Positions 619-12,628 of a stretch of DNA of 14,195 nucleotides are shown here, piece by piece. The notes under the pieces were generated by a model. That model was not told the DNA's origin. It was given only the letters and a program-made list of their open reading frames with translations, and searched no databases. The stretch is from a virus (Duplodnaviria > Heunggongvirae > Uroviricota > Caudoviricetes). The stretch is taken from IMG/VR virus record IMGVR_UViG_2617270940_000003. One strand, given 5' to 3'. The position numbers and the translations under genes were made by a program. Position 1 is the first letter of the stretch; each line of letters begins with the position of its first letter.

Positions 619-2231
619 TAGGCTATTTACCATAACGCCTCATTACGCGCACCGCCCAGACTGACTCAGCGCGTTTCTGGCATATCCCCGGTAAAACAAG
701 TAACAAACCACCCGAAAATGAACACCAGAAACGCGACTTAAGAATCTACCCTATGAATGGATATGCACTCAACCGAATCGATCTTGGTTTCAATCTTTTT
801 TATCGGGATCAGGCTTCTTTTTAGGTAACTTCGGGGGCTTAACTTGCTGATGACTTTGCGTTCGGCGCGTAAGCCAGGGATGGTCAGCTTTAGGTTTAAC
901 ATAGTATTTTGAGCGTAAATCAATACGGGCATTATCCACTCGTTCATGGACACTCTTTTCATCATCCAGTGGTATAGGCTCCGGGCCATCAACATACTTT
1001 TCCCAGCCCAGCGCTTTCCCGTCATACAGAACGTTAATTTCACCGTCAAAGTTCTCGCATACAGTAACAACCGAATGCCTAAGTCGATATCCCCGGCTCT
1101 CACTGCGTACCTGAAACGCACTGCTTTTGTACTGGAAAGTGAGATTTTTAGACAGAACGCGCTTCGCCTGTAGGCTGAAGATATAACCCAGTTCCTCTTC
1201 AGAATGGTGCACATCAAGATGAGCATTATCAGTAGTACGAGGCGACGTAGCGAACCGGTTGTTATAGGCTTCAATAAAGGTCGGCAACCATGCATTTGCT
1301 GTTTCAATATCACTGATATTCTGAAGCCGCATTTCTTTGACCAGCCTGTCCTGTAGTGTCTGATTGGCGCGCTCTACCCGCCCTTTTGCCTGCGGGCTGT
1401 TGGCATGGATTGGCTCGATGCCCAGTGTCTTTATCGCACGAGTGAACTGGGTCAGCTCACCTTCCCGCTCTGGGTTATTTACCCTGAATATACTGTGTCT
1501 ATCAGAGTAGAGAGCGAGCGGTACGCCATGATCATTAAGGTAACCCCGGAGGGTTTCCATGTAAGCCCGGGTTGTTTCAGCAGGCACAAAACGCAACGCC
1601 ATCAACGCACTGGTGGCATCATCAATGAAAACGATCAGTGTACATCTGGGGCCTCGATTTTCAAACCAGTCATGAGGTGAGCCATCAATCTGGATCAGTT
1701 CACCGTAAGATGGTCGTCGCATGCGGCGTTGATATATACGGGCAATTTTACGACGGCGTTCACGCCATAACCCCTCTTCTATCATCCACTTTCTGAGAGT
1801 TTCAACGGATAAAGATAAACCGTGTATCTCGCGCAATTTTTCGCACGCAAACGTAGGTCCAAAATCAGCGTAACGGCCTTTGAGGAGTGAAATTACTGTT
1901 GCTCTGAATTCAGTAGAAAAGGAATTATTAGGACGCTTTCCACGTCGGTGGGAAACCAGACCAGAAGGCCCTTCATTTCTATACCGTTGCACCAGACGTT
2001 TAACCTGCCGAATAGAAATGCCAATGCGTGCCGCAGCTTGTTCCTGAGTAATATGTCGATTAATTGACTCCTGAATAATCTGAAGTCGGTGGAGTTCCTT
2101 ATGACTCATCGTAACAGTCTCTTTGATCATGAAAAATCCCCCAGAGAATTGTCTGGGGACATTTTAGAATGGTTCAAAGGGGACATTACAGCTTGGTGTT
2201 AACAATAGCCTGCTTCTCCGTGCCTTTCGGC
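619..2231 (-). mobile_element. Tentative extent of the IS carrying the 446-aa transposase; ends not resolved
   Basis: Only a weak imperfect inverted match between 619-640 (aggctatttaccataacgcc) and the reverse complement of 2210-2231 (aggctattgttaacaccaagc). Hairpins at 2148-2167 (ccccaga-N6-tctgggg) and 2237-2254 (cggagaagc-N0-gcttctccg) lie in or just beyond the transposase leader. No clear target-site duplication found. Confidence 0.3.
790..2130 (-). CDS. DDE-type transposase with N-terminal HTH and rve (integrase-core) domain, ISNCY (IS1202-group) or IS481-like
   Basis: 446-aa ORF. N-terminal HTH (ITQEQAAARIGISIRQVKRLVQRY). Catalytic-core candidates LIQIDGSPHDW (D), LYSDRHSIF (D), GRVERANQTLQ (E). 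Lys/Pro-rich basic C-terminal tail. Family assignment is from motif layout and length, not a search. Confidence 0.8.
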   Translation of the reverse strand: MIKETVTMSHKELHRLQIIQESINRHITQEQAAARIGISIRQVKRLVQRYRNEGPSGLVSHRRGKRPNNSFSTEFRATVISLLKGRYADFGPTFACEKLREIHGLSLSVETLRKWMIEEGLWRERRRKIARIYQRRMRRPSYGELIQIDGSPHDWFENRGPRCTLIVFIDDATSALMALRFVPAETTRAYMETLRGYLNDHGVPLALYSDRHSIFRVNNPEREGELTQFTRAIKTLGIEPIHANSPQAKGRVERANQTLQDRLVKEMRLQNISDIETANAWLPTFIEAYNNRFATSPRTTDNAHLDVHHSEEELGYIFSLQAKRVLSKNLTFQYKSSAFQVRSESRGYRLRHSVVTVCENFDGEINVLYDGKALGWEKYVDGPEPIPLDDEKSVHERVDNARIDLRSKYYVKPKADHPWLTRRTQSHQQVKPPKLPKKKPDPDKKD

Positions 2232-2464
2232 ACGTAAGAGGCTAACCTACATGTGTCTAGCATGAAATTGGCCTCAGATTAATGTTAAGCGTCTTGCAGG
2301 ACGCGTAATGTTAACTGGGGCTTTTCTCTATCTGCCGTTGGTGTCCATGCCCGAGGCAGATAGCCTCAAGCACCCGCAGTCATTCTACTTAACTAAGATT
2401 TCCCCGCAAACCGTTTTTGTCCAGCACAGTAAATATCCAACTAAACCAATGGAGTTCGCTGTAT

Positions 2465-2644
2465 TTACCGCCAGTATTCAATGCACATGACCGCCATGAA
2501 CACCCCTAAAAAAAGGGCATTTATATATCCAAATATTAATATCAAAACATCAACTTTTTCCATATACCTTGCTGTGAAGATGATGGGCATACATGATGCG
2601 AACAACCAGAACGCAACAAACAAAAACTGCAATGCGTTTTTCAT
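2465..2644 (-). CDS. Small hydrophobic protein, 59 aa, two predicted transmembrane segments; function unknown
   Basis: Internal ATG of the listed 72-aa ORF, preceded on the minus strand by a canonical Shine-Dalgarno (gtAGGAGGaataATG). Product MKNALQFLFVAFWLFASCMPIIFTARYMEKVDVLILIFGYINALFLGVFMAVMCIEYWR. AT-rich, island-like context. Confidence 0.4.
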   Translation of the reverse strand: MKNALQFLFVAFWLFASCMPIIFTARYMEKVDVLILIFGYINALFLGVFMAVMCIEYWR

Positions 2645-2901
2645 TATTCCTCCTACAATCAATGTGCAATTACATTTAAACACACCTCAATTTGGCCGGA
2701 CATATAAATATCTAAACCAGAAAAAATCACTTACATAGCGTTACAAACTCTTTAGTCTAAAGGTTCATCGTAAAACATTCCCCATACTTATCAGTCCGTT
2801 CCGCGCCAGGTAGCTCATTGCCTTATCTGGCAACCTGTAATCAGGTTTCCGCTTTTTCAGTTGGCTGGTCGTTTAACCGACATAGTTAATCCATTAATCT
2901 A

Positions 2902-3532
2902 GTTGCCGGATGTTGGTGGATTTTCGCGTTTTAGTTGTTCATAAAAGTGCACAGCTTTAACCAGTTCTTCTGATGTAACCGGGACTGGTGAGGCAGTGAA
3001 TAAGGCCTGAATTTGATAGTTCGGCCTGTCGTTACAATCCTCTTTTTTCGGTACATATTTCCAGTCACCAGACCACTACTTCCCCTGAAAGTCCGTAACG
3101 CTTTTTTCACGTAGCGATATCGCCATGCCACTGGTTTTGCTTGCCCGCCGTTTCATGCCCTTCCTGATAATTAATCTCGCTCATTCATCGCCCCACTCAT
3201 CACAATATGCTTCGACCGGAGTTTTTCCCGCTTCATAGTCATCACGCTAGGATTCGACATCAGCAGCACTTCCACCGCGTAATTCACCATAGTCCATTAA
3301 TAGTTCATCCCGCTCTTCAAAACTGATGTTATATTTAGCTGAACAAAAATCAGCCACTTTGTTCTTCCTCATCGTCTTTTATTTCGTGGTATGAGTAATT
3401 GCAGTAGTTAAAGAAAATTTCTTATGCTCCGTCATGAATTTCATCAGGTGTTGCGTCATCGTCCACTTCGAATACATCCTCAAAATCTCCACCAGCTATT
3501 TCCGTTTCAATAATAATTTTGAACTTTCGCAT
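2902..3532 (-). pseudogene. Run of decayed small phage (nin-region-like) ORFs on the minus strand: fragments in three frames, one in-frame TAG and at least one frameshift
   Basis: Hand translation gives a 36-aa ORF (3425-3532, MRKFKIIIETEIAGGDFEDVFEVDDDATPDEIHDGA); a 41-aa ORF (3251-3372) whose frame continues after a TAG at 3250-3248 as RDDYEAGKTPVEAYCDEWGDE; an ATGA stop/start overlap into MSEINYQEGHETAGKQNQWHGDIAT; and a start-less protein-like frame ...WSGDWKYVPKKEDCNDRPNYQIQALFTASPVPVTSEELVKAVHFYEQLKRENPPTSGN ending at 2902. Confidence 0.4.
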
Positions 3533-3794
3533 TTCACTACCGCCCTTTCGGGCGGCCTCCTGATGTTCTGAGGGTGCAGAAATCCATCCGGTTAAGGATT
3601 AAGTTTTATTTACAGAACTGAATTTAATTATTCAGATATACGTATCTGTAACCTTACGAATCTACTCACTGGATGCCTCTTTCATAAAAATAATCCAGTG
3701 GGTTTTATCGTTTTTTCCCTGTTCGTTGACAGATAACAGGCTTTCTATCTGTCAGTGCCAGAATCTGGCTTACCGGTATTTGCGTTTCATTCCA

Positions 3795-4151
3795 TTAAAA
3801 AATCAGAACGCCGTGCGGCCTCAACACCCGAAAAGCTTCTTTAAATCTCTGTCGCAAATCATCACGCCAGGCATCTTTATTCAGCCGTCCATATTTCTTT
3901 CCCATCCAGGCGTTATCACCAACACGCTCAAGATGCGGAGGGTCTAATACAACCATCGAAAAAGATGCGTCTGCAAATGATAATGCACGAAAATCTGCGA
4001 TAATGTCAGGGCTGATAATCAAGCGTCTCCCATTGCGTAATGTGTATCCTTCTTTTCTGATATCGCTGAATATCGCCCGTTTGTCAGACTTATCGAACCA
4101 GAACATGCGGCTGCCACAGCACATATCAAGAATGGTTGCCGGTGCACTCAC
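3795..4151 (-). CDS. Putative DNA (amino) methyltransferase, probably C-terminally truncated (catalytic motifs I and IV only, 118 aa)
   Basis: ILDMCCGS (AdoMet-binding motif-I-like) near the N-terminus and VVLDPPH (DPPY/H-type motif IV) about 60 residues later. No room for a target-recognition domain. Start overlaps the upstream ORF stop (ATGA at 4148-4151). Downstream sequence is decayed. Confidence 0.5.
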   Translation of the reverse strand: MSAPATILDMCCGSRMFWFDKSDKRAIFSDIRKEGYTLRNGRRLIISPDIIADFRALSFADASFSMVVLDPPHLERVGDNAWMGKKYGRLNKDAWRDDLRQRFKEAFRVLRPHGVLIF

Positions 4152-6370: not shown

Positions 6371-6778
6371 ATGGATACAAGAACCCTGGGCCAGCGAGTT
6401 CTGGCGCGACGAAAAGAATTACGCTTAACACAACGAGAAGCCGCGCGCCTCGCTGGAGTTGCTCACGTCACAATTTCACAATGGGAAAGAGACGAAACCC
6501 AGCCAGTCGGAAAACGATTGTTTGCTTTAGCGGATGCTCTGAAGTGCTCACCTACATGGCTAATGTTTGGTGACGAAGACAAGGCACCAGTGCCTGCACA
6601 AGAACTTCATGTGGAAACAGAGCTAACTCCCAACCACAAAGAATTGATCGAATTATTCGATGCTCTTCCATCTTCCGAGCAGGAAGCCTTGCTGTCTGAA
6701 ATGCGCGCAAGAGTAGAAAACTTCAACAAACTCTTCGAAGAAATGCTTAAAGCGCGTAAAAATAAATCAATAAAATAA
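6371..6778 (+). CDS. dicA: XRE-family HTH repressor, DicA-like (repressor of the division-inhibition operon)
   Basis: 135-aa ORF. HTH LTQREAARLAGVAHVTISQWE. Segments ...SPTWLMFGDEDK..., ...ELIELFDALPSSEQ..., ...EMRARVENFNKLFEEMLKAR... match my recollection of E. coli DicA. No S24 peptidase domain. Confidence 0.85.
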   Translation: MDTRTLGQRVLARRKELRLTQREAARLAGVAHVTISQWERDETQPVGKRLFALADALKCSPTWLMFGDEDKAPVPAQELHVETELTPNHKELIELFDALPSSEQEALLSEMRARVENFNKLFEEMLKARKNKSIK

Positions 6779-6946: not shown

Positions 6947-7102
6947 ATGGATACTATCGATCTTGGCAACAGCGAATCTCTGGTATGTGGCGTGTTCCCC
7001 AACCAGGACGGTACGTTCACCGCGATGACGTATACCAAAAGCAAAACGTTTAAAACCGAAAATGGTGCCCGTCGCTGGCTGGAAAGAAACCCAGGTGAGT
7101 GA
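6947..7102 (+). CDS. ydfA: Small Qin-type prophage protein YdfA-like (51 aa)
   Basis: MDTIDLGNSESLVCGVFPNQDGTFTAMTYTKSKTFKTENGARRWLERNPGE with a GAGG Shine-Dalgarno 7 nt upstream. First gene of the operon leading to dicF and dicB. Confidence 0.75.
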   Translation: MDTIDLGNSESLVCGVFPNQDGTFTAMTYTKSKTFKTENGARRWLERNPGE

Positions 7103-7103
7103 T

Positions 7104-7232
7104 ATGGATTTCGACACAATCATGGAAAAGGCTTACGAAGAATACTTCGAAGGTCTTGCCGACGGCGAAGAAGCTCTCAGCTTCAACGAATTTAAACAGG
7201 CGCTTTCCAGTTCGGCAAAATCTAACGGCTGA
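7104..7232 (+). CDS. ydfB: Small Qin-type prophage protein YdfB-like (42 aa); below the 60-aa ORF-track cutoff
   Basis: ATG 1 nt after the ydfA stop. MDFDTIMEKAYEEYFEGLADGEEALSFNEFKQALSSSAKSNG, stop TGA at 7230-7232. Confidence 0.7.
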   Translation: MDFDTIMEKAYEEYFEGLADGEEALSFNEFKQALSSSAKSNG

Positions 7233-7261: not shown

Positions 7262-7480
7262 ATGCAGAAACGAGAACCCGTCATCATCGCGCCAGACTAT
7301 ACCGATGATGAACTTTATGAGTGGATGCGCCAGAAAATTAATGCAGCGCAGGATTTGAAATGGGCCAATGAAACCAGGGCTAAGCAGGCTGAAAATCTGT
7401 CCGCTCTGGAGCAGGATATCACCAATCTGGAAAAAGCAGCGGCATTAAGCATTGCCAGAATGATTACATACCCGCGTTAG
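7262..7480 (+). CDS. ydfC: Small Qin-type prophage protein YdfC-like (72 aa), coiled-coil-like
   Basis: Complete ORF with a GAGGA Shine-Dalgarno; position and length match ydfC of the dicB operon. Confidence 0.7.
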   Translation: MQKREPVIIAPDYTDDELYEWMRQKINAAQDLKWANETRAKQAENLSALEQDITNLEKAAALSIARMITYPR

Positions 7481-7820: not shown

Positions 7821-7873
7821 TTTCTGGTGACGTTTGGCGGTATCAGTTTTACTCCGTGACTGCTCTGCCGCCC
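7821..7873 (+). ncRNA. dicF: DicF small antisense RNA (about 53 nt), followed by its intrinsic terminator T-run at 7874-7878
   Basis: Sequence tttctggtgacgtttggcggtatcagttttactccgtgactgctctgccgccc followed by ttttt matches the DicF sRNA as I recall it. GC stem (ggcgg at 7836-7840 pairing with ccgcc at 7868-7872) immediately before the T-run. Confidence 0.8.
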
Positions 7874-8047: not shown

Positions 8048-8236
8048 ATGAAAACGTTATTACCAAACGTTAATACGTCTGAAGGTTGTTTTGAAATTGG
8101 TGTCACTATCAGTAACCCAGTATTTACTGAAGATGCCATTAACAAGAGAAAACAAGAACGGGAGCTATTAAATAAAATATGCATTGTTTCAATGCTGGCT
8201 CGTTTACGTCTGATGCCAAAAGGATGTGCACAATGA
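8048..8236 (+). CDS. dicB: Cell-division inhibitor DicB (acts via MinC), 62 aa
   Basis: Internal ATG of the listed 97-aa ORF, with a GAGGA Shine-Dalgarno. MKTLLPNVNTSEGCFEIGVTISNPVFTEDAINKRKQERELLNKICIVSMLARLRLMPKGCAQ matches recalled DicB. Confidence 0.85.
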   Translation: MKTLLPNVNTSEGCFEIGVTISNPVFTEDAINKRKQERELLNKICIVSMLARLRLMPKGCAQ

Positions 8237-8424
8237 ATTCAGCATTTGTGCTTGTTCTGACAGTTTTTCTTGTTTCCGGAGAGCCAGTTGATATTGCAGT
8301 CAGTGTGCACAGGACAATGCAGGAGTGTATGACTGCAGCAACCGAACAGAAAATTCCCGGTAACTGTTACCCGGTCGATAAAGTTATTCACCAGGATAAT
8401 ATCGAAATCCCGGCAGGTCTTTAA
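8233..8424 (+). CDS. ydfD: YdfD-like small membrane lysis protein, 63 aa
   Basis: ATG overlapping the dicB stop (ATGA). MNSAFVLVLTVFLVSGEPVDIAVSVHRTMQECMTAATEQKIPGNCYPVDKVIHQDNIEIPAGL with a hydrophobic N-terminal segment. Confidence 0.8.
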   Translation: MNSAFVLVLTVFLVSGEPVDIAVSVHRTMQECMTAATEQKIPGNCYPVDKVIHQDNIEIPAGL

Positions 8425-8517: not shown

Positions 8518-10989
8518 ATGAGTAAAGTCTTTATTTGCGCCGCTATTCCTGACGAACTGGCAACAAGGGAAGAAGGCGCTGTGGCTGTAGCCACAGCCAT
8601 TGAAGCTGGCGACGAACGCCGTGCTCGAGCAAAATTTCACTGGCAGTTCCTGGAACATTATCCGGCTGCTCAGGACTGCGCTTATAAATTTATTGTCTGC
8701 GAGGATAAACCTGGCATACCCCGCCCTGCCCTCGATTCATGGGATGCTGAATATATGCAGGAAAACCGCTGGGATGAGGAGTCTGCTTCTTTTGTCCCGG
8801 TTGAGACTGAATCCGATCCGATGAACGTCACTTTTGACAAGCTGGCCCCTGAAGTACAGAACGCTGTCATGGTTAAGTTCGACACATGTGAAAACATCAC
8901 CGTTGATATGGTTATTAGCGCACAGGAATTGTTGCAGGAAGACATGGCAACATTCGACGGACATATCGTTGAAGCGTTGATGAAAATGCCAGAAGTTAAC
9001 GCCATGTATCCGGAGCTTAAGTTGCACGCCATTGGGTGGGTTAAGCATAAATGTATTCCTGGTGCTAAATGGCCCGAAATTCAGGCAGAGATGCGCATCT
9101 GGAAAAAACGTCGCGAAGGTGAACGCAAGGAAACCGGAAAATACACGTCTGTTGTTGATCTCGCCCGCGCCAGAACCAATCAACAGTACACTGAAAATTC
9201 AACAGGAAAAATCAGCCCGGTCATTGCTGCCATTCATCGCGAATACAAGCAGACATGGAAAACACTGGATGACGAACTGGCCTACGCTCTCTGGCCTGGT
9301 GATGTGGATGCCGGAAACATTGACGGCAGCATCCATCGCTGGGCAAAAAAAGAAGTTATCGACAACGACCGCGAAGACTGGAAGCGTATCTCGGCATCAA
9401 TGCGCAAACAGCCTGATGCCCTTCGCTACGACCGCCAGACTATTTTTGGCCTTGTCCGTGAGCGTCCGATCGACATTCACAAAGATCCCATAGCACTGAA
9501 CAAATATATCTGCGAATACCTGACGACAAAGGGCGTGTTTGAGAATGAAGAAACAGACCTGGGCACTGTTGATGTTCTCCAGTCATCAGAAACACAAACT
9601 GATGCAGTGGAAACTGAGGTATCTGATATCCCAAAAAATGAAACCGCGCCGGAAGCTGAACCATCTGTAGAGCGTGAGGGGCCGTTCTATTTCCTCTTCG
9701 CAGATAAGGACGGAGAAAAATACGGTCGCGCAAACAAACTTTCTGGTCTGGATAAGGCACTGGCTGCTGGCGCCACTGAAATCACAAAAGAAGAATATTT
9801 TGCCCGAAAAAATGGCACATACACGGGCTTACCGCAAAATGTAGATACCGCTGAAGATTCAGAACAACCAGAGCCGATAAAAGTTACCGCTGACGAAGTA
9901 AACAAAATTATGCAGGCAGCCAATATCAGCCAGCCTGACGCCGATAAGTTGCTTGCTGCATCACGTGGTGAATTTGTTGAAGGGATTAGTGACCCGAATG
10001 ATCCGAAATGGGTTAAGGGGATCCAGACCCGCGATTCTGTGAACCAGAACCAGCATGAATCGGAACGGAACTACCAAAAAGCGGAACAAAACAGCACAAA
10101 TGCGTTACAAAACGAGCCAGAAACGAAACAGCCTGAACCAGTGGCGCAACTGGAAGTGGAAAAAGTCTGCACCGCCTGCGGTCAGACCGGCGGCGGCAAC
10201 TGCCCTGATTGTGGCGCGGTGATGGGCGACGCAACATACCAGGAAACATTCGATGAAGAGTATCAGGTTGAAGTTCAGGAAGATGATCTGGAGGAAATGG
10301 AAGGCGCTGAACATCCACACAAGGAGAACACTGGCGGCAATCAGCATCACAATAGCGATAATGAAACTGGCGAGACGGCAGATCACTCAATTAAGGTGAA
10401 CGGTCATCACGAAATCACATCCACCAGCAGGACGTGTGACCATCTAATGATCGACCTTGAAACCATGGGAAAAAATCCTGATGCCCCGATCATCTCAATA
10501 GGTGCAATATTTTTCGATCCGCAAACCGGAGATATGGGACCGGAATTTAGTAAGACTATCGATCTGGAAACTGCTGGCGGAGTCATTGATCGGGACACCA
10601 TTAAATGGTGGCTTAAGCAATCACGCGAAGCGCAATCTGCCATTATGACCGATGAAATCCCGTTAGATGATGCACTGTTACAATTGCGGGAATTTATCGA
10701 CGAAAACTCCGGTGAATTTTTTGTTCAGGTTTGGGGAAATGGAGCCAACTTCGACAACACGATTTTGCGCCGTTCATACGAACGGCAGGGGATCCCCTGC
10801 CCGTGGCGTTACTACAACGATCGCGATGTACGCACAATCGTTGAGCTGGGGAAAGCCATAGACTTCGATGCCAGAACGGCTATTCCATTCGAAGGTGAGC
10901 GCCATAATGCACTTGATGACGCCCGTTACCAGGCAAAATACGTTTCAGTTATCTGGCAAAAACTGATCCCGAGTCAGGCTGATTCTTAA
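8518..10989 (+). CDS. Large multidomain prophage protein: N-terminal region of unknown function, CxxC-x7-CxxC zinc ribbon, acidic linker, C-terminal DEDDh-type 3'-5' exonuclease domain (occupies the ydfE position)
   Basis: Uninterrupted 823-codon frame. Zinc ribbon CTACGQTGGGNCPDCG encoded at 10168-10212. Exonuclease motifs: Exo I MIDLETMG (D646, E648), Exo II GNGANFDNTIL (D746), Exo III HNALDDARY (H796, D800). Last gene of the plus-strand operon before xis/int. Confidence 0.85.
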   Translation: MSKVFICAAIPDELATREEGAVAVATAIEAGDERRARAKFHWQFLEHYPAAQDCAYKFIVCEDKPGIPRPALDSWDAEYMQENRWDEESASFVPVETESDPMNVTFDKLAPEVQNAVMVKFDTCENITVDMVISAQELLQEDMATFDGHIVEALMKMPEVNAMYPELKLHAIGWVKHKCIPGAKWPEIQAEMRIWKKRREGERKETGKYTSVVDLARARTNQQYTENSTGKISPVIAAIHREYKQTWKTLDDELAYALWPGDVDAGNIDGSIHRWAKKEVIDNDREDWKRISASMRKQPDALRYDRQTIFGLVRERPIDIHKDPIALNKYICEYLTTKGVFENEETDLGTVDVLQSSETQTDAVETEVSDIPKNETAPEAEPSVEREGPFYFLFADKDGEKYGRANKLSGLDKALAAGATEITKEEYFARKNGTYTGLPQNVDTAEDSEQPEPIKVTADEVNKIMQAANISQPDADKLLAASRGEFVEGISDPNDPKWVKGIQTRDSVNQNQHESERNYQKAEQNSTNALQNEPETKQPEPVAQLEVEKVCTACGQTGGGNCPDCGAVMGDATYQETFDEEYQVEVQEDDLEEMEGAEHPHKENTGGNQHHNSDNETGETADHSIKVNGHHEITSTSRTCDHLMIDLETMGKNPDAPIISIGAIFFDPQTGDMGPEFSKTIDLETAGGVIDRDTIKWWLKQSREAQSAIMTDEIPLDDALLQLREFIDENSGEFFVQVWGNGANFDNTILRRSYERQGIPCPWRYYNDRDVRTIVELGKAIDFDARTAIPFEGERHNALDDARYQAKYVSVIWQKLIPSQADS

Positions 10990-11000
10990 TGTTCAACTGT

Positions 11001-11032
11001 CGCCGGTTGTGACTGGTATTCTGCAACCGGCG
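11001..11032 (+). other. Stable stem-loop (9-bp stem cgccggttg/caaccggcg, 14-nt loop) between the 823-aa gene and the excisionase gene; no T-run
   Basis: Perfect inverted repeat read directly. Not followed by a U-tract, so not a canonical intrinsic terminator. Confidence 0.4.
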
Positions 11033-11061
11033 CTCGTCTAATGTAAGAGATAAAGAAATCG

Positions 11062-11313
11062 ATGAGCGAAGTAATCATGATTGTCTCTCCCGGCAAATGG
11101 GTATCCGAAGAGCAGTTAATTGCGCTGAAAGGAATAAAAAAAGGTACGTTAAAAAAGGCCCGGGAAAAATCGTTTATGGAAGGAAGGGAATATAAGCATG
11201 TCGCTCATGACGGTATGCCATGGGATAACAGCCCATGCTTTTACAACCTGGAAGAAATTGATCGCTGGATTGAGCGCCAGGCATCAGCGAGACCAAGACG
11301 TCATCTTACTTGA
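11062..11313 (+). CDS. Putative excisionase / recombination directionality factor (83 aa, basic)
   Basis: Small basic ORF ending 20 nt before int on the same strand, the lambda-like xis-int arrangement. No motif verified. Confidence 0.55.
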   Translation: MSEVIMIVSPGKWVSEEQLIALKGIKKGTLKKAREKSFMEGREYKHVAHDGMPWDNSPCFYNLEEIDRWIERQASARPRRHLT

Positions 11314-11332: not shown

Positions 11333-12628
11333 ATGAGAGAAGTTGAAATGAAATATCCGACAGGCGTGGAAAACCATGGAGGGAAATTACGTATCTGGTT
11401 TGTTTATAAAGGCGTAAGAGTCAGGGAAAATCTGGGGGTTCCTGACACAGCAAAAAACAGGCGCGTTGCAGGTGAACTACGCGCCTCTGTTTGTTACGCA
11501 ATAAAAACTGGTGTTTTCGACTATGCAAAACAGTTTCCCTCCTCACGCAATCTGGAAAAATTTGGTGAGGCCCGACAAGATTTAACCATAAAAGAACTGG
11601 CTGAAAAATTTCTGGCACTGAAAGAAACTGAAGTCGCAAAAACATCACTCAACACATACCGTGCCGTCATCAAAAATATCCTGAGCATAATCGGTGAAAA
11701 AAATCTTGCCTCATCGATTAATAAAGAAAAATTACTGGAGGTTCGTAAAGAGCTACTGACTGGATACCAGATCCCCAAAAGTAACTATATTGTTACACAA
11801 CCAGGGAGATCGGCTGTAACTGTAAATAATTACATGACAAATCTTAACGCCGTGTTCCAGTTTGGTGTTGATAACGGTTACTTGGCAGATAACCCGTTTA
11901 AGGGGATCTCGCCATTAAAGGAATCAAGAACCATTCCGGATCCTCTTTCGCGGGAGGAATTCATCCGTCTTATCGATGCGTGCAGAAATCAGCAAGCCAA
12001 AAATTTATGGTGTGTTTCTGTTTATACTGGCGTTCGCCCTGGTGAGCTGTGTGCACTTGGATGGGAGGACATAGATCTGAAAAATGGAACAATGATGATC
12101 AGGAGAAATTTAGCAAAAGACCGTTTCACGGTACCAAAAACACAGGCGGGAACCAATCGGGTCATTCATCTTATTAAGCCAGCAATCGACGCTCTCCGGA
12201 GTCAGATGACATTAACGAGACTGAGCAAAGAGCATATCATTGATGTTCACCTCAGAGAGTATGGCAGAACAGAAAAACAAAAATGCACCTTTGTTTTTCA
12301 ACCTGAAGTGTCAGCGAGAGTAAAAAATTATGGTGACCATTTTACCGTTGACTCAATAAGGCAGATGTGGGACGCAGCGATAAAACGTGCCGGACTCCGC
12401 CATCGAAAATCATATCAGTCGAGACATACTTATGCCTGCTGGTCGCTGACAGCTGGTGCTAACCCGGCATTTATAGCAAACCAGATGGGCCATGCAGATG
12501 CGCAAATGGTATTTCAGGTATACGGAAAATGGATGTCTGAAAACAATAATGCACAGGTAGCTTTGTTAAATACACAGTTAAGCGAGTTTGCCCCAACCAT
12601 GCCCCATAACGAAGCAATGAAAAATTAA
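11333..12628 (+). CDS. Phage tyrosine integrase (lambdoid Int family); likely true start at the ATG at 11348 (MKYPTGVE...)
   Basis: N-terminal arm-binding-like segment (GKLRIWFVYKGVRVRENLGV...GVFDYAKQFPSSR) resembling e14/Rac-type integrases. C-terminal catalytic region with R (VYTGVRPGEL), H-x-x-R (RHTYACW) and the Tyr in ...MVFQVYGKW. Confidence 0.9.
   Translation: MREVEMKYPTGVENHGGKLRIWFVYKGVRVRENLGVPDTAKNRRVAGELRASVCYAIKTGVFDYAKQFPSSRNLEKFGEARQDLTIKELAEKFLALKETEVAKTSLNTYRAVIKNILSIIGEKNLASSINKEKLLEVRKELLTGYQIPKSNYIVTQPGRSAVTVNNYMTNLNAVFQFGVDNGYLADNPFKGISPLKESRTIPDPLSREEFIRLIDACRNQQAKNLWCVSVYTGVRPGELCALGWEDIDLKNGTMMIRRNLAKDRFTVPKTQAGTNRVIHLIKPAIDALRSQMTLTRLSKEHIIDVHLREYGRTEKQKCTFVFQPEVSARVKNYGDHFTVDSIRQMWDAAIKRAGLRHRKSYQSRHTYACWSLTAGANPAFIANQMGHADAQMVFQVYGKWMSENNNAQVALLNTQLSEFAPTMPHNEAMKN

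Follow-up and report, generated by a model that had tools for sequence, protein, structure and literature searches.

A RecE-related scaffold joined to a predicted 3′–5′ DEDDh exonuclease domain in the dicB operon of Qin-type prophages

Exonuclease VIII (RecE), encoded by the Rac prophage of E. coli K-12, is an 866-residue protein in which a long non-catalytic region precedes a 5′–3′ nuclease of the PD-(D/E)XK type, crystallized as residues 606–866 (PDB 3H4R). The non-catalytic region is dispensable for nuclease activity and enhances recombination between two linear DNAs. Here we examine a prophage protein of 823 residues that carries a homologous region and ends in a nuclease domain of another kind. 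It is encoded by the last gene of the dicB operon on the IMG/VR virus record IMGVR_UViG_2617270940_000003 (Caudoviricetes), a stretch of 14,195 nucleotides that we refer to as the window. We are highly confident of its molecular identity as a mosaic of a YdfE-type head, a RecE-type middle and a DEDDh exonuclease domain. That it functions as a RecE-family scaffold protein of swapped polarity, acting on DNA ends, is a reading to which we assign a probability of about 0.5.

The described relatives of the exonuclease domain are stand-alone proteins. DexA of phages T4 and T2 is a 3′–5′ DNA exonuclease of 227 residues, the structure of which was solved by Kang et al. (2025, Nucleic Acids Research; PMC12153337; PDB 8KEL/8KEN). 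The same study reports that EcD (HAK9828821.1), a stand-alone DexA homolog of E. coli, cleaves T4 DNA, not unmodified double-stranded DNA, and protects cells from T4 even when its expression is leaky (PMC12153337). The protein encoded in the window appears, as WP_001515375.1, among the bacterial DexA homologs in their Table S3, beside stand-alone proteins of ∼190 residues; the 823-residue form was not studied. K-12 was described as lacking DexA homologs (PMC12153337), which fits the truncation of K-12 ydfE by IS2. Pfam family PF16473, to which the exonuclease domain belongs, was founded on RNase AS (Rv2179c) of M. tuberculosis, a stand-alone bacterial exoribonuclease of ∼160 residues that has neither phage context nor scaffold.

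The operon has also been described. In K-12 it comprises ydfA, -B, -C, -D and -E and is transcribed from dicBp, a PL-like promoter repressed by DicA, with no other promoters found; the small RNA DicF is matured from it by RNase III and RNase E (PMC10448788). This 2023 study of the dicBF operon names YdfD as the only characterized product besides DicB and DicF, which bears out the expectation, voiced in an initial annotation made from the letters of the window, that the full-length protein at the end of the operon is probably uncharacterized.

The gene occupies positions 8518..10989 on the plus strand, stop codon included, and is complete, with a single uninterrupted open reading frame (ORF) of 823 codons, as the initial annotation had it. 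Its product is identical to RefSeq WP_001515375.1, which is labeled “exonuclease” or “3′-5′ exonuclease” and occasionally receives the name “3′-5′ exoribonuclease” from the Prokaryotic Genome Annotation Pipeline (PGAP). PHROG 2082 covers its full length, and two recent Pfam families, PF27430 and PF27432, also appear in its precomputed annotation. The gene family is thus already catalogued and is extremely common, and the sequence is not new; the 823-residue protein is functionally uncharacterized and has no K-12 counterpart beyond a stump. In the literature available to us, no paper connects DEDDh nucleases to RecE or to exonucleases of prophages, and none describes the protein as a RecE scaffold bearing a nuclease of swapped polarity.

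The C-terminal domain (residues 642–813; positions 10441..10956, plus strand) matches PF16473, the Rv2179c-like family, over profile positions 2–177 of 177 with 226.5 bits (gathering cutoff 27; E = 2.3e-67). Its catalytic pentad D646/E648/D746/H796/D801 aligns with D7/E9/D119/H186/D191 of DexA, in motifs ExoI, ExoII and ExoIII. When the full-length AlphaFold model was searched with Foldseek, all 26 matches at E ≤ 1e-3 were DEDDh exonucleases, each with a probability of 1.00; they include RNase T, a Cas-associated DnaQ domain, the exonuclease domain of DinG, and Orn. Next, at E = 1e-3 to 2e-3 and likewise with a probability of 1.00, come REXO2, RNase AS and Cap18, an exonuclease associated with CBASS; the RNase AS structure 6S0M gives a target TM-score of 0.63. 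These matches come from a model of the domain that is of moderate confidence (predicted local distance difference test, pLDDT, 55–86). A sequence search of the PDB returned, as the nearest solved relative of the C-terminal domain, the 227-residue “Exodeoxyribonuclease” 8KEL/8KEN (E = 1.6e-6), which is T4 DexA. The two share the DEDDh pentad at ∼26% identity, but DexA has additional loops and helices. Much closer are stand-alone DEDDh paralogs of ∼190 residues, 54%–60% identical to the window domain, that lie in early operons of other temperate coliphages beside ea22-type genes. The protein would then be a 3′–5′ exonuclease that acts on DNA 3′ ends.

The initial annotation had recognized DnaQ-like 3′–5′ exonuclease motifs in place of a PD-(D/E)XK nuclease and would have been overturned by a C terminus of some other fold; profile and structure searches alike find the DEDDh fold. 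The residues it named, C551, C554, C562, C565, D646, E648, D746 and H796, are all present. It paired H796 with D800; both D800 and D801 are aspartates, and the canonical H-x4-D partner, aligned with DexA D191, is D801.

What precedes the exonuclease domain is likewise assignable, contrary to the first impression that residues 1–540 contain no recognizable motif. The head (residues 1–256; 8518..9285, plus strand) is 99% identical over its 256 codons to the product of the K-12 YdfE pseudogene (b1577, Qin prophage), which sits in the same operon and at the same chromosomal site but is cut by IS2E after codon 256 and so lacks the RecE-like middle, zinc ribbon, linker and exonuclease domain. In the AlphaFold model, residues 1–208 form a confident alpha/beta plus helical module. 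The middle (residues 262–622; 9301..10383, plus strand) is homologous to residues 278–588 of the RecE non-catalytic region. BLASTP against K-12 RecE aligns residues 262–625 with RecE 278–591 (E = 1e-59), and a finer alignment shows blocks at residues 474–511 and 548–601 that are ∼87%–93% identical, together with a 14-residue insertion. Two folded modules are predicted in this region, one helical (residues 245–345) and one of beta-hairpins plus helices (residues 388–435). The NCBIfam exonuclease VIII equivalog NF007259 matches residues 246–625 alone (model positions 271–602 of 877; E = 3e-83), and the whole-protein score of 280.4 bits against a cutoff of 1269 places the protein outside the RecE equivalog. 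The protein is nonetheless not unrelated to RecE, since ∼360 of its residues correspond to the RecE non-catalytic region.

The zinc ribbon and the acidic linker are part of this shared region. The ribbon, CxxC-x7-CxxC (C551/C554/C562/C565, CTAC-x7-CPDC; 10168..10212, plus strand), is common to the window protein and K-12 RecE (CNACGQTGGDNCPDC). The linker (residues 567–637; 10216..10428, plus strand) is predicted to be disordered, with pLDDT <50, and is mostly common to RecE 533–588; between residues 561 and 600, 14 of 40 residues are aspartate or glutamate and none is lysine or arginine. The conserved block at residues 548–601 contains both the ribbon and the linker, which the initial annotation had described correctly.

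The RecE homology stops abruptly at window residue 622, equivalent to RecE 588, immediately upstream of the RecE nuclease domain (606–866). No RecE-type PD-(D/E)XK domain was found, as there is no similarity past RecE 588 and the PDB search gave no match to 3H4R. Similarly, the Pfam PF06630 (Exonuc_VIII) head was not found in the window protein, although the model detects relatives of the RecE head. The window protein and RecE thus belong to the same narrow mosaic family and resemble each other in size (823 versus 866 residues), in the non-catalytic region with its ribbon and acidic linker, and in genomic position, but differ at both ends: RecE has a PF06630 head and a PD-(D/E)XK (5′–3′) tail, where the window protein has a YdfE-type head and a DEDDh (3′–5′) tail.

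This mosaicism extends across the family. At E ≤ 1e-3, an exhaustive HMMER scan of 1.84 billion representative sequences with residues 1–640 as the query matched just 247 proteins, a good many of which are fragments, and we typed the heads and tails of the 48 members of at least 450 residues. Two alternative heads occur among the 48, the YdfE type of the window protein and the RecE-N type (PF06630), and the middle and zinc-linker module is common to both. Seven have DEDDh tails, 12 have RecE-type PD-(D/E)XK tails and 29 have neither. Each of the two heads is found among the 48 with each of the two known tails: a YdfE-type head with a DEDDh tail (the window protein, P0001) or a RecE nuclease (P0131, P0197, P0224), and a RecE-N head with a DEDDh tail (P0128) or a RecE nuclease (the RecE-like P0240). 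As the zinc ribbon is found in six of the 48, with any type of tail, and is missing from several DEDDh-tailed members, it is an optional element of the linker and not a partner of the exonuclease.

A swap has also occurred within a single cassette. In strains g1-11 and MS20674, the ydfA-ydfB-ydfC-dicB-ydfD operon ends in an 813-residue protein (WP_000102142.1) that is 59% identical to RecE 50–592 and then 99% identical to the DEDDh domain of the window protein. Its head is unrelated to that of the window protein (14% identity). This protein and the 805-residue P0128 share with the window protein the dicB cassette and the position within it, as well as the zinc-linker (92%–95% identical) and the DEDDh domain (99% identical), but have a RecE-type head and middle that are only 14%–27% identical to those of the window protein. 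In nature, tails have therefore been exchanged exactly at the boundary between scaffold and nuclease.

Among the tails that are neither DEDDh nor RecE type, we note a module of ∼205 residues with the invariant pattern “KKSLTD..K.LS.LGF.AD”, carried on the YdfE/RecE-type scaffold by P0129, P0134, P0135, P0153, P0170, P0187, P0189, P0196, P0211, P0232, P0237, P0263 and P0267. Its match to Pfam Rad52_Rad22 is sub-threshold (18.8 bits; cutoff 20.3), and its hhalign alignment with the N-terminal domain of human RAD52 is colinear and statistically weak (probability 4%). The module is also a stand-alone gene in 173 phage records (including F116, PMG1, ZF40 and vibriophages), where its label varies between “exonuclease” and “DNA repair protein”. 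Were the module an annealase, the scaffold could bear an annealase as well as nucleases. P0126 and P0133 have a fourth, ∼45-residue C-terminal module, “LTIAA[LI][HQ]GLCANP...”, in place of any nuclease.

The genomic setting of the gene parallels that of recE. Annotated records that are 100% identical place the window in a Qin-type prophage at the rspB site, with the gene order DicC-like Cro, DicA-like repressor, ydfA, ydfB, ydfC, dicB, ydfD, exonuclease, xis, int. In the window, all on the plus strand, the DicA-type repressor gene (6371..6778), whose product controls the PL-like promoter dicBp, precedes an operon of ydfA (6947–7102), ydfB (7104–7232), ydfC (7262–7480), DicF (7822–7873, an Rfam match), dicB (8048–8236), ydfD (8233–8424) and the exonuclease gene, directly downstream of which come xis (11062–11313) and an intact int (11348–12628). 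Scanning the interval from ydfD to the exonuclease gene revealed neither a sigma-70-like promoter nor a convincing terminator. The Rac PL operon runs ydaG, ydaF (DUF1391), kilR, ydaE, racC, recE, recT, ralR, rcbA, xisR, intR; the Qin operon runs ydfA (DUF1391), ydfB, ydfC, dicF, dicB, ydfD, exonuclease gene, xis, int. Both contain a DUF1391 gene, a gene for an FtsZ inhibitor, and recE or the exonuclease gene, followed by xis and int. Given this parallel, the exonuclease gene occupies the recE slot of a PL-type early-left operon and not the exclusion or moron slot that had been proposed for it. The initial annotation had placed the gene correctly between DicF, dicB and ydfD on one side and xis-int on the other, and its statement on K-12 is accurate, as the counterpart there is the ydfE pseudogene, after which come IS2E, insD7 and a pseudogenized intQ.

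One difference from Rac is the absence of recT after the window gene. Two-component phage recombinases such as RecET and lambda Red encode an annealase in the same operon. In contrast, a check of the ORFs upstream of the gene, both in the window and in phage HannyBb, turned up no annealase family of the RecT, Redβ, Erf or Sak type, and the unannotated PL-operon ORFs of both match PHROGs of unknown function only. No recT-like gene lies between the exonuclease gene and xis: the DEDDh tail runs straight into this xis in 2,563 genomes, and elsewhere other xis/int modules follow directly. The lack of an annealing-protein gene nearby, noted at the outset, thus extends to the contexts examined here.

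The gene is widespread and under constraint. At a coverage of at least 80% it is present in 3,537 of 5,426 complete E. coli genomes (∼65%), at a median of two places per genome, and it is also found in the cultured phages HannyBb, PhiR42_1, Tritos, mEp460 and Evi and in PPompW prophages linked to Shiga toxin 2a (Stx2a) phages. In pairwise comparisons with mEp460 and Evi, the ratio of nonsynonymous to synonymous substitution rates (dN/dS) is 0.08–0.10 for the head, 0.31–0.34 for the middle, 0.41–0.53 for the zinc-linker and 0.16–0.24 for the DEDDh domain. All parts of the protein are under purifying selection, which is strongest on the head and the nuclease. The orthologue in the PPompW prophages of O26 enterohemorrhagic E. 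coli (EHEC) (Enterobacteria phage PPompW_EH1846, our locus L038, 101–2568) is annotated as frameshifted by a deletion; given this frameshift and the K-12 IS2 truncation, the gene has been lost independently in some lineages.

How might such a protein act? Starting from the domains and their homologies, the catalytic residues, the mosaic architecture, the genomic setting and the selection described above, we infer a substrate, a polarity in vitro, a mode of targeting and a role that could be connected as follows. The YdfE-type head, RecE-type middle and acidic, flexible linker would deliver an Mg-dependent DEDDh 3′–5′ exonuclease of the DexA/Rv2179c type, which would take the place of the 5′–3′ PD-(D/E)XK nuclease of RecE. 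Transcription of the operon would start at dicBp and, as this PL-like promoter is repressed by DicA, the protein would be made only on derepression or in lytic growth. The non-catalytic scaffold would then direct the tethered exonuclease to its substrate on DNA; linear DNA ends are the target that we judge most plausible, because of the activity of full-length RecE on linear DNAs. There the DEDDh domain would strip nucleotides from 3′ ends, in the service of phage-side DNA-end processing or recombination-related DNA metabolism that proceeds without a dedicated annealase.

Several points weigh against this proposal. Digestion in the 3′–5′ direction removes the very 3′ tails that RecT or RecA would use, and with no adjacent annealase gene in any context examined, the gene is not half of a classical exonuclease/annealase pair. 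However, XthA is reported to drive the joining of linear DNA in E. coli by 3′–5′ resection, independently of an annealase (bioRxiv 10.1101/454074), and 3′–5′ polarity is therefore not incompatible with annealing-based joining. The stand-alone relatives of ∼190 residues argue that the nuclease may work without a scaffold, possibly in a role other than recombination; the distant homolog EcD is reported to be an anti-T4 nuclease (PMC12153337); and other members of PF16473, such as RNase AS, are ribonucleases. In addition, PL operons also hold accessory genes unconnected with recombination, including dicB and ydfD, structure searches with the head and middle gave no informative relative and hence no functional clue, and the exonuclease activity of the 823-residue protein is itself a prediction.

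Could the protein instead defend against other phages? An anti-phage superinfection-exclusion nuclease of the EcD (“HREX”) type would digest incoming modified-cytosine DNA, as found in T-even phages, and thereby protect the lysogen or the developing phage. The cleavage of T4 DNA and protection of cells by EcD provide a precedent, EcD shares the Pfam family and catalytic residues of the window domain, and WP_001515375.1 is in the same table of homologs (PMC12153337); moreover, DicB from the same operon is reported to protect against some phages (PMC6832061). Using the EcD primer sequences, we recovered from six IMG/VR loci a 189-residue ORF (start MIDTET..., Ala78) whose 3′ end is one base off the reverse primer and which we regard as EcD or as a protein very close to it. 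The window domain is 37%–38% identical to this EcD-type ORF and 26% identical to DexA. The residues assigned to recognition of 5-hydroxymethylcytosine (5hmC), DexA W152 and D169 (PMC12153337), correspond to W132 and E145 in the EcD-like protein but to Y766 and K779 in the window protein, in alignments of 26%–37% identity that are gapped around D169. Conversely, the aspartate whose loss defines the dimer state of EcD (D90 in tetramer-forming DexA; Ala78 in EcD) is kept in the window protein as D718. The stand-alone EcD-like protein therefore has the tryptophan and an acidic residue and lacks the aspartate, and the window protein is the reverse. At such low identity and with a gapped alignment, the window protein appears to fall outside the EcD/HREX type as drawn in PMC12153337. 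No defense-system family in PADLOC-DB 2.0 matches it at E ≤ 0.01, and the stand-alone paralogs give only weak matches to a generic Cas-associated DEDDh model. As the operon is repressed in lysogens and this explanation leaves a RecE-type scaffold of 640 residues without a role, we consider it unlikely. The superinfection exclusion suggested in the initial annotation thus retains its precedent in a distant homolog and is weakened by the loss of the 5hmC residues and by the PADLOC result.

Other roles for the exonuclease domain seem less probable still. Scavenging of the kind described as one of two roles of DexA (PMC12153337), the nearest solved relative, would have the protein supply phage replication with nucleotides trimmed from the 3′ ends of fragmented host DNA, and early expression from a PL-type promoter would suit it. 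With DexA only 26% identical, and with a conserved scaffold and the interchange with the RecE nuclease left unexplained, we regard this as improbable; temperate lambdoid phages are not known to degrade the host chromosome. We would give similarly little weight to an exoribonuclease of the RNase AS, RNase T or Orn type that acts on the dicBF transcript or DicF, on host or defense RNAs or, as an anti-defense factor, on nucleotide second messengers. PF16473 is named for a 3′–5′ exoribonuclease, as is the protein in some PGAP records, and RNase T, Orn, REXO2, RNase AS and Cap18 are among the structural neighbors of the domain. On the other hand, K-12, in which the gene is truncated, matures DicF with RNase III and RNase E (PMC10448788), so the exonuclease is not needed for DicF processing, which removes the basis for the earlier suggestion of an RNA-processing factor for the operon transcript. 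Further, the scaffold is common to the DNA exonuclease RecE, the nearest characterized relatives of the domain, DexA and EcD, are DNases, and the PADLOC comparison shows no association with a known signaling defense or anti-defense locus. Least credible is a decaying or selfish mosaic remnant that hitch-hikes in a widespread prophage cassette. Copies have been inactivated in K-12 (IS2) and in the PPompW phages of O26 EHEC (frameshift), and the representative search returned many fragments, but a dN/dS of 0.08–0.53, well below 1 in every segment, intact catalytic residues, full-length copies in ∼3,537 genomes and retention in viable phages already disfavor it. We therefore continue to prefer the RecE-family scaffold with a DNA-end exonuclease.

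Additional features of the locus deserve mention. At least three different xis/int modules, at the attachment sites rspB, tRNA-Ser/mtfA and potC, accompany the ydfA-ydfB-ydfC-dicB-ydfD-exonuclease cassette, as seen at loci L035 and L036 (strains g1-11 and MS20674; 1341–1532). The left operon thus travels as one piece, whichever integration module it adjoins. Immediately after the exonuclease stop codon and ahead of xis (11001–11036, plus strand), a GC-rich inverted repeat of 9 bp (CGCCGGTTG ... CAACCGGCG) flanks a loop of 14 nt. The repeat has no T-tract and is not a canonical intrinsic terminator; it might serve in RNA processing or stability or bind a protein. The early-right side of the prophage (1060–4106, minus strand) is decayed, while the left operon, xis and int are intact. 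It holds, on the minus strand, an ISEsa1 transposase pseudogene (1060–2130), a frameshifted hypothetical gene (2765–3184) and a frameshifted S-adenosylmethionine-dependent methyltransferase gene (3662–4106). Between the first two of these, at 2204–2375 (minus strand), is a strong Rfam match to the sok antitoxin (104 bits, E = 3e-23). Since the 100%-identical RefSeq record has no hok/sok-type gene annotated there, an unannotated locus of this type may be present.

Finally, we consider what the mosaic means for RecE and its relatives. The DEDDh version is among the commonest E. coli prophage genes, often in several copies, and is found also in EHEC lineages that bear Stx phages; it has probably escaped study because K-12 keeps only the IS2-truncated ydfE stump. 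It also calls for caution over the HREX claim, since the homolog table of PMC12153337 includes a prophage protein whose sequence features and genomic setting are at odds with the EcD model.

The RecE N-terminal region boosts the linear-linear recombination that is exploited for direct cloning, and to our knowledge the function of these ∼590 residues has gone unexplained for decades. Natural versions of the RecE-type scaffold bear a nuclease of one polarity or the other, and perhaps a module of a third kind, and the function of the scaffold must therefore be independent of the polarity of resection. A broader and distinctly tentative idea is that the YdfE/RecE-type scaffold is a general platform by which temperate enterobacterial phages target or tether interchangeable catalytic modules to DNA ends, among them a 5′–3′ exonuclease, a 3′–5′ exonuclease and possibly a Rad52-like annealase. 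If so, the DEDDh version would perform annealase-independent phage recombination or end joining, or the end-directed destruction of competing DNA. The family thus offers a natural experiment, and with it a comparative handle on the N-terminal region of RecE.

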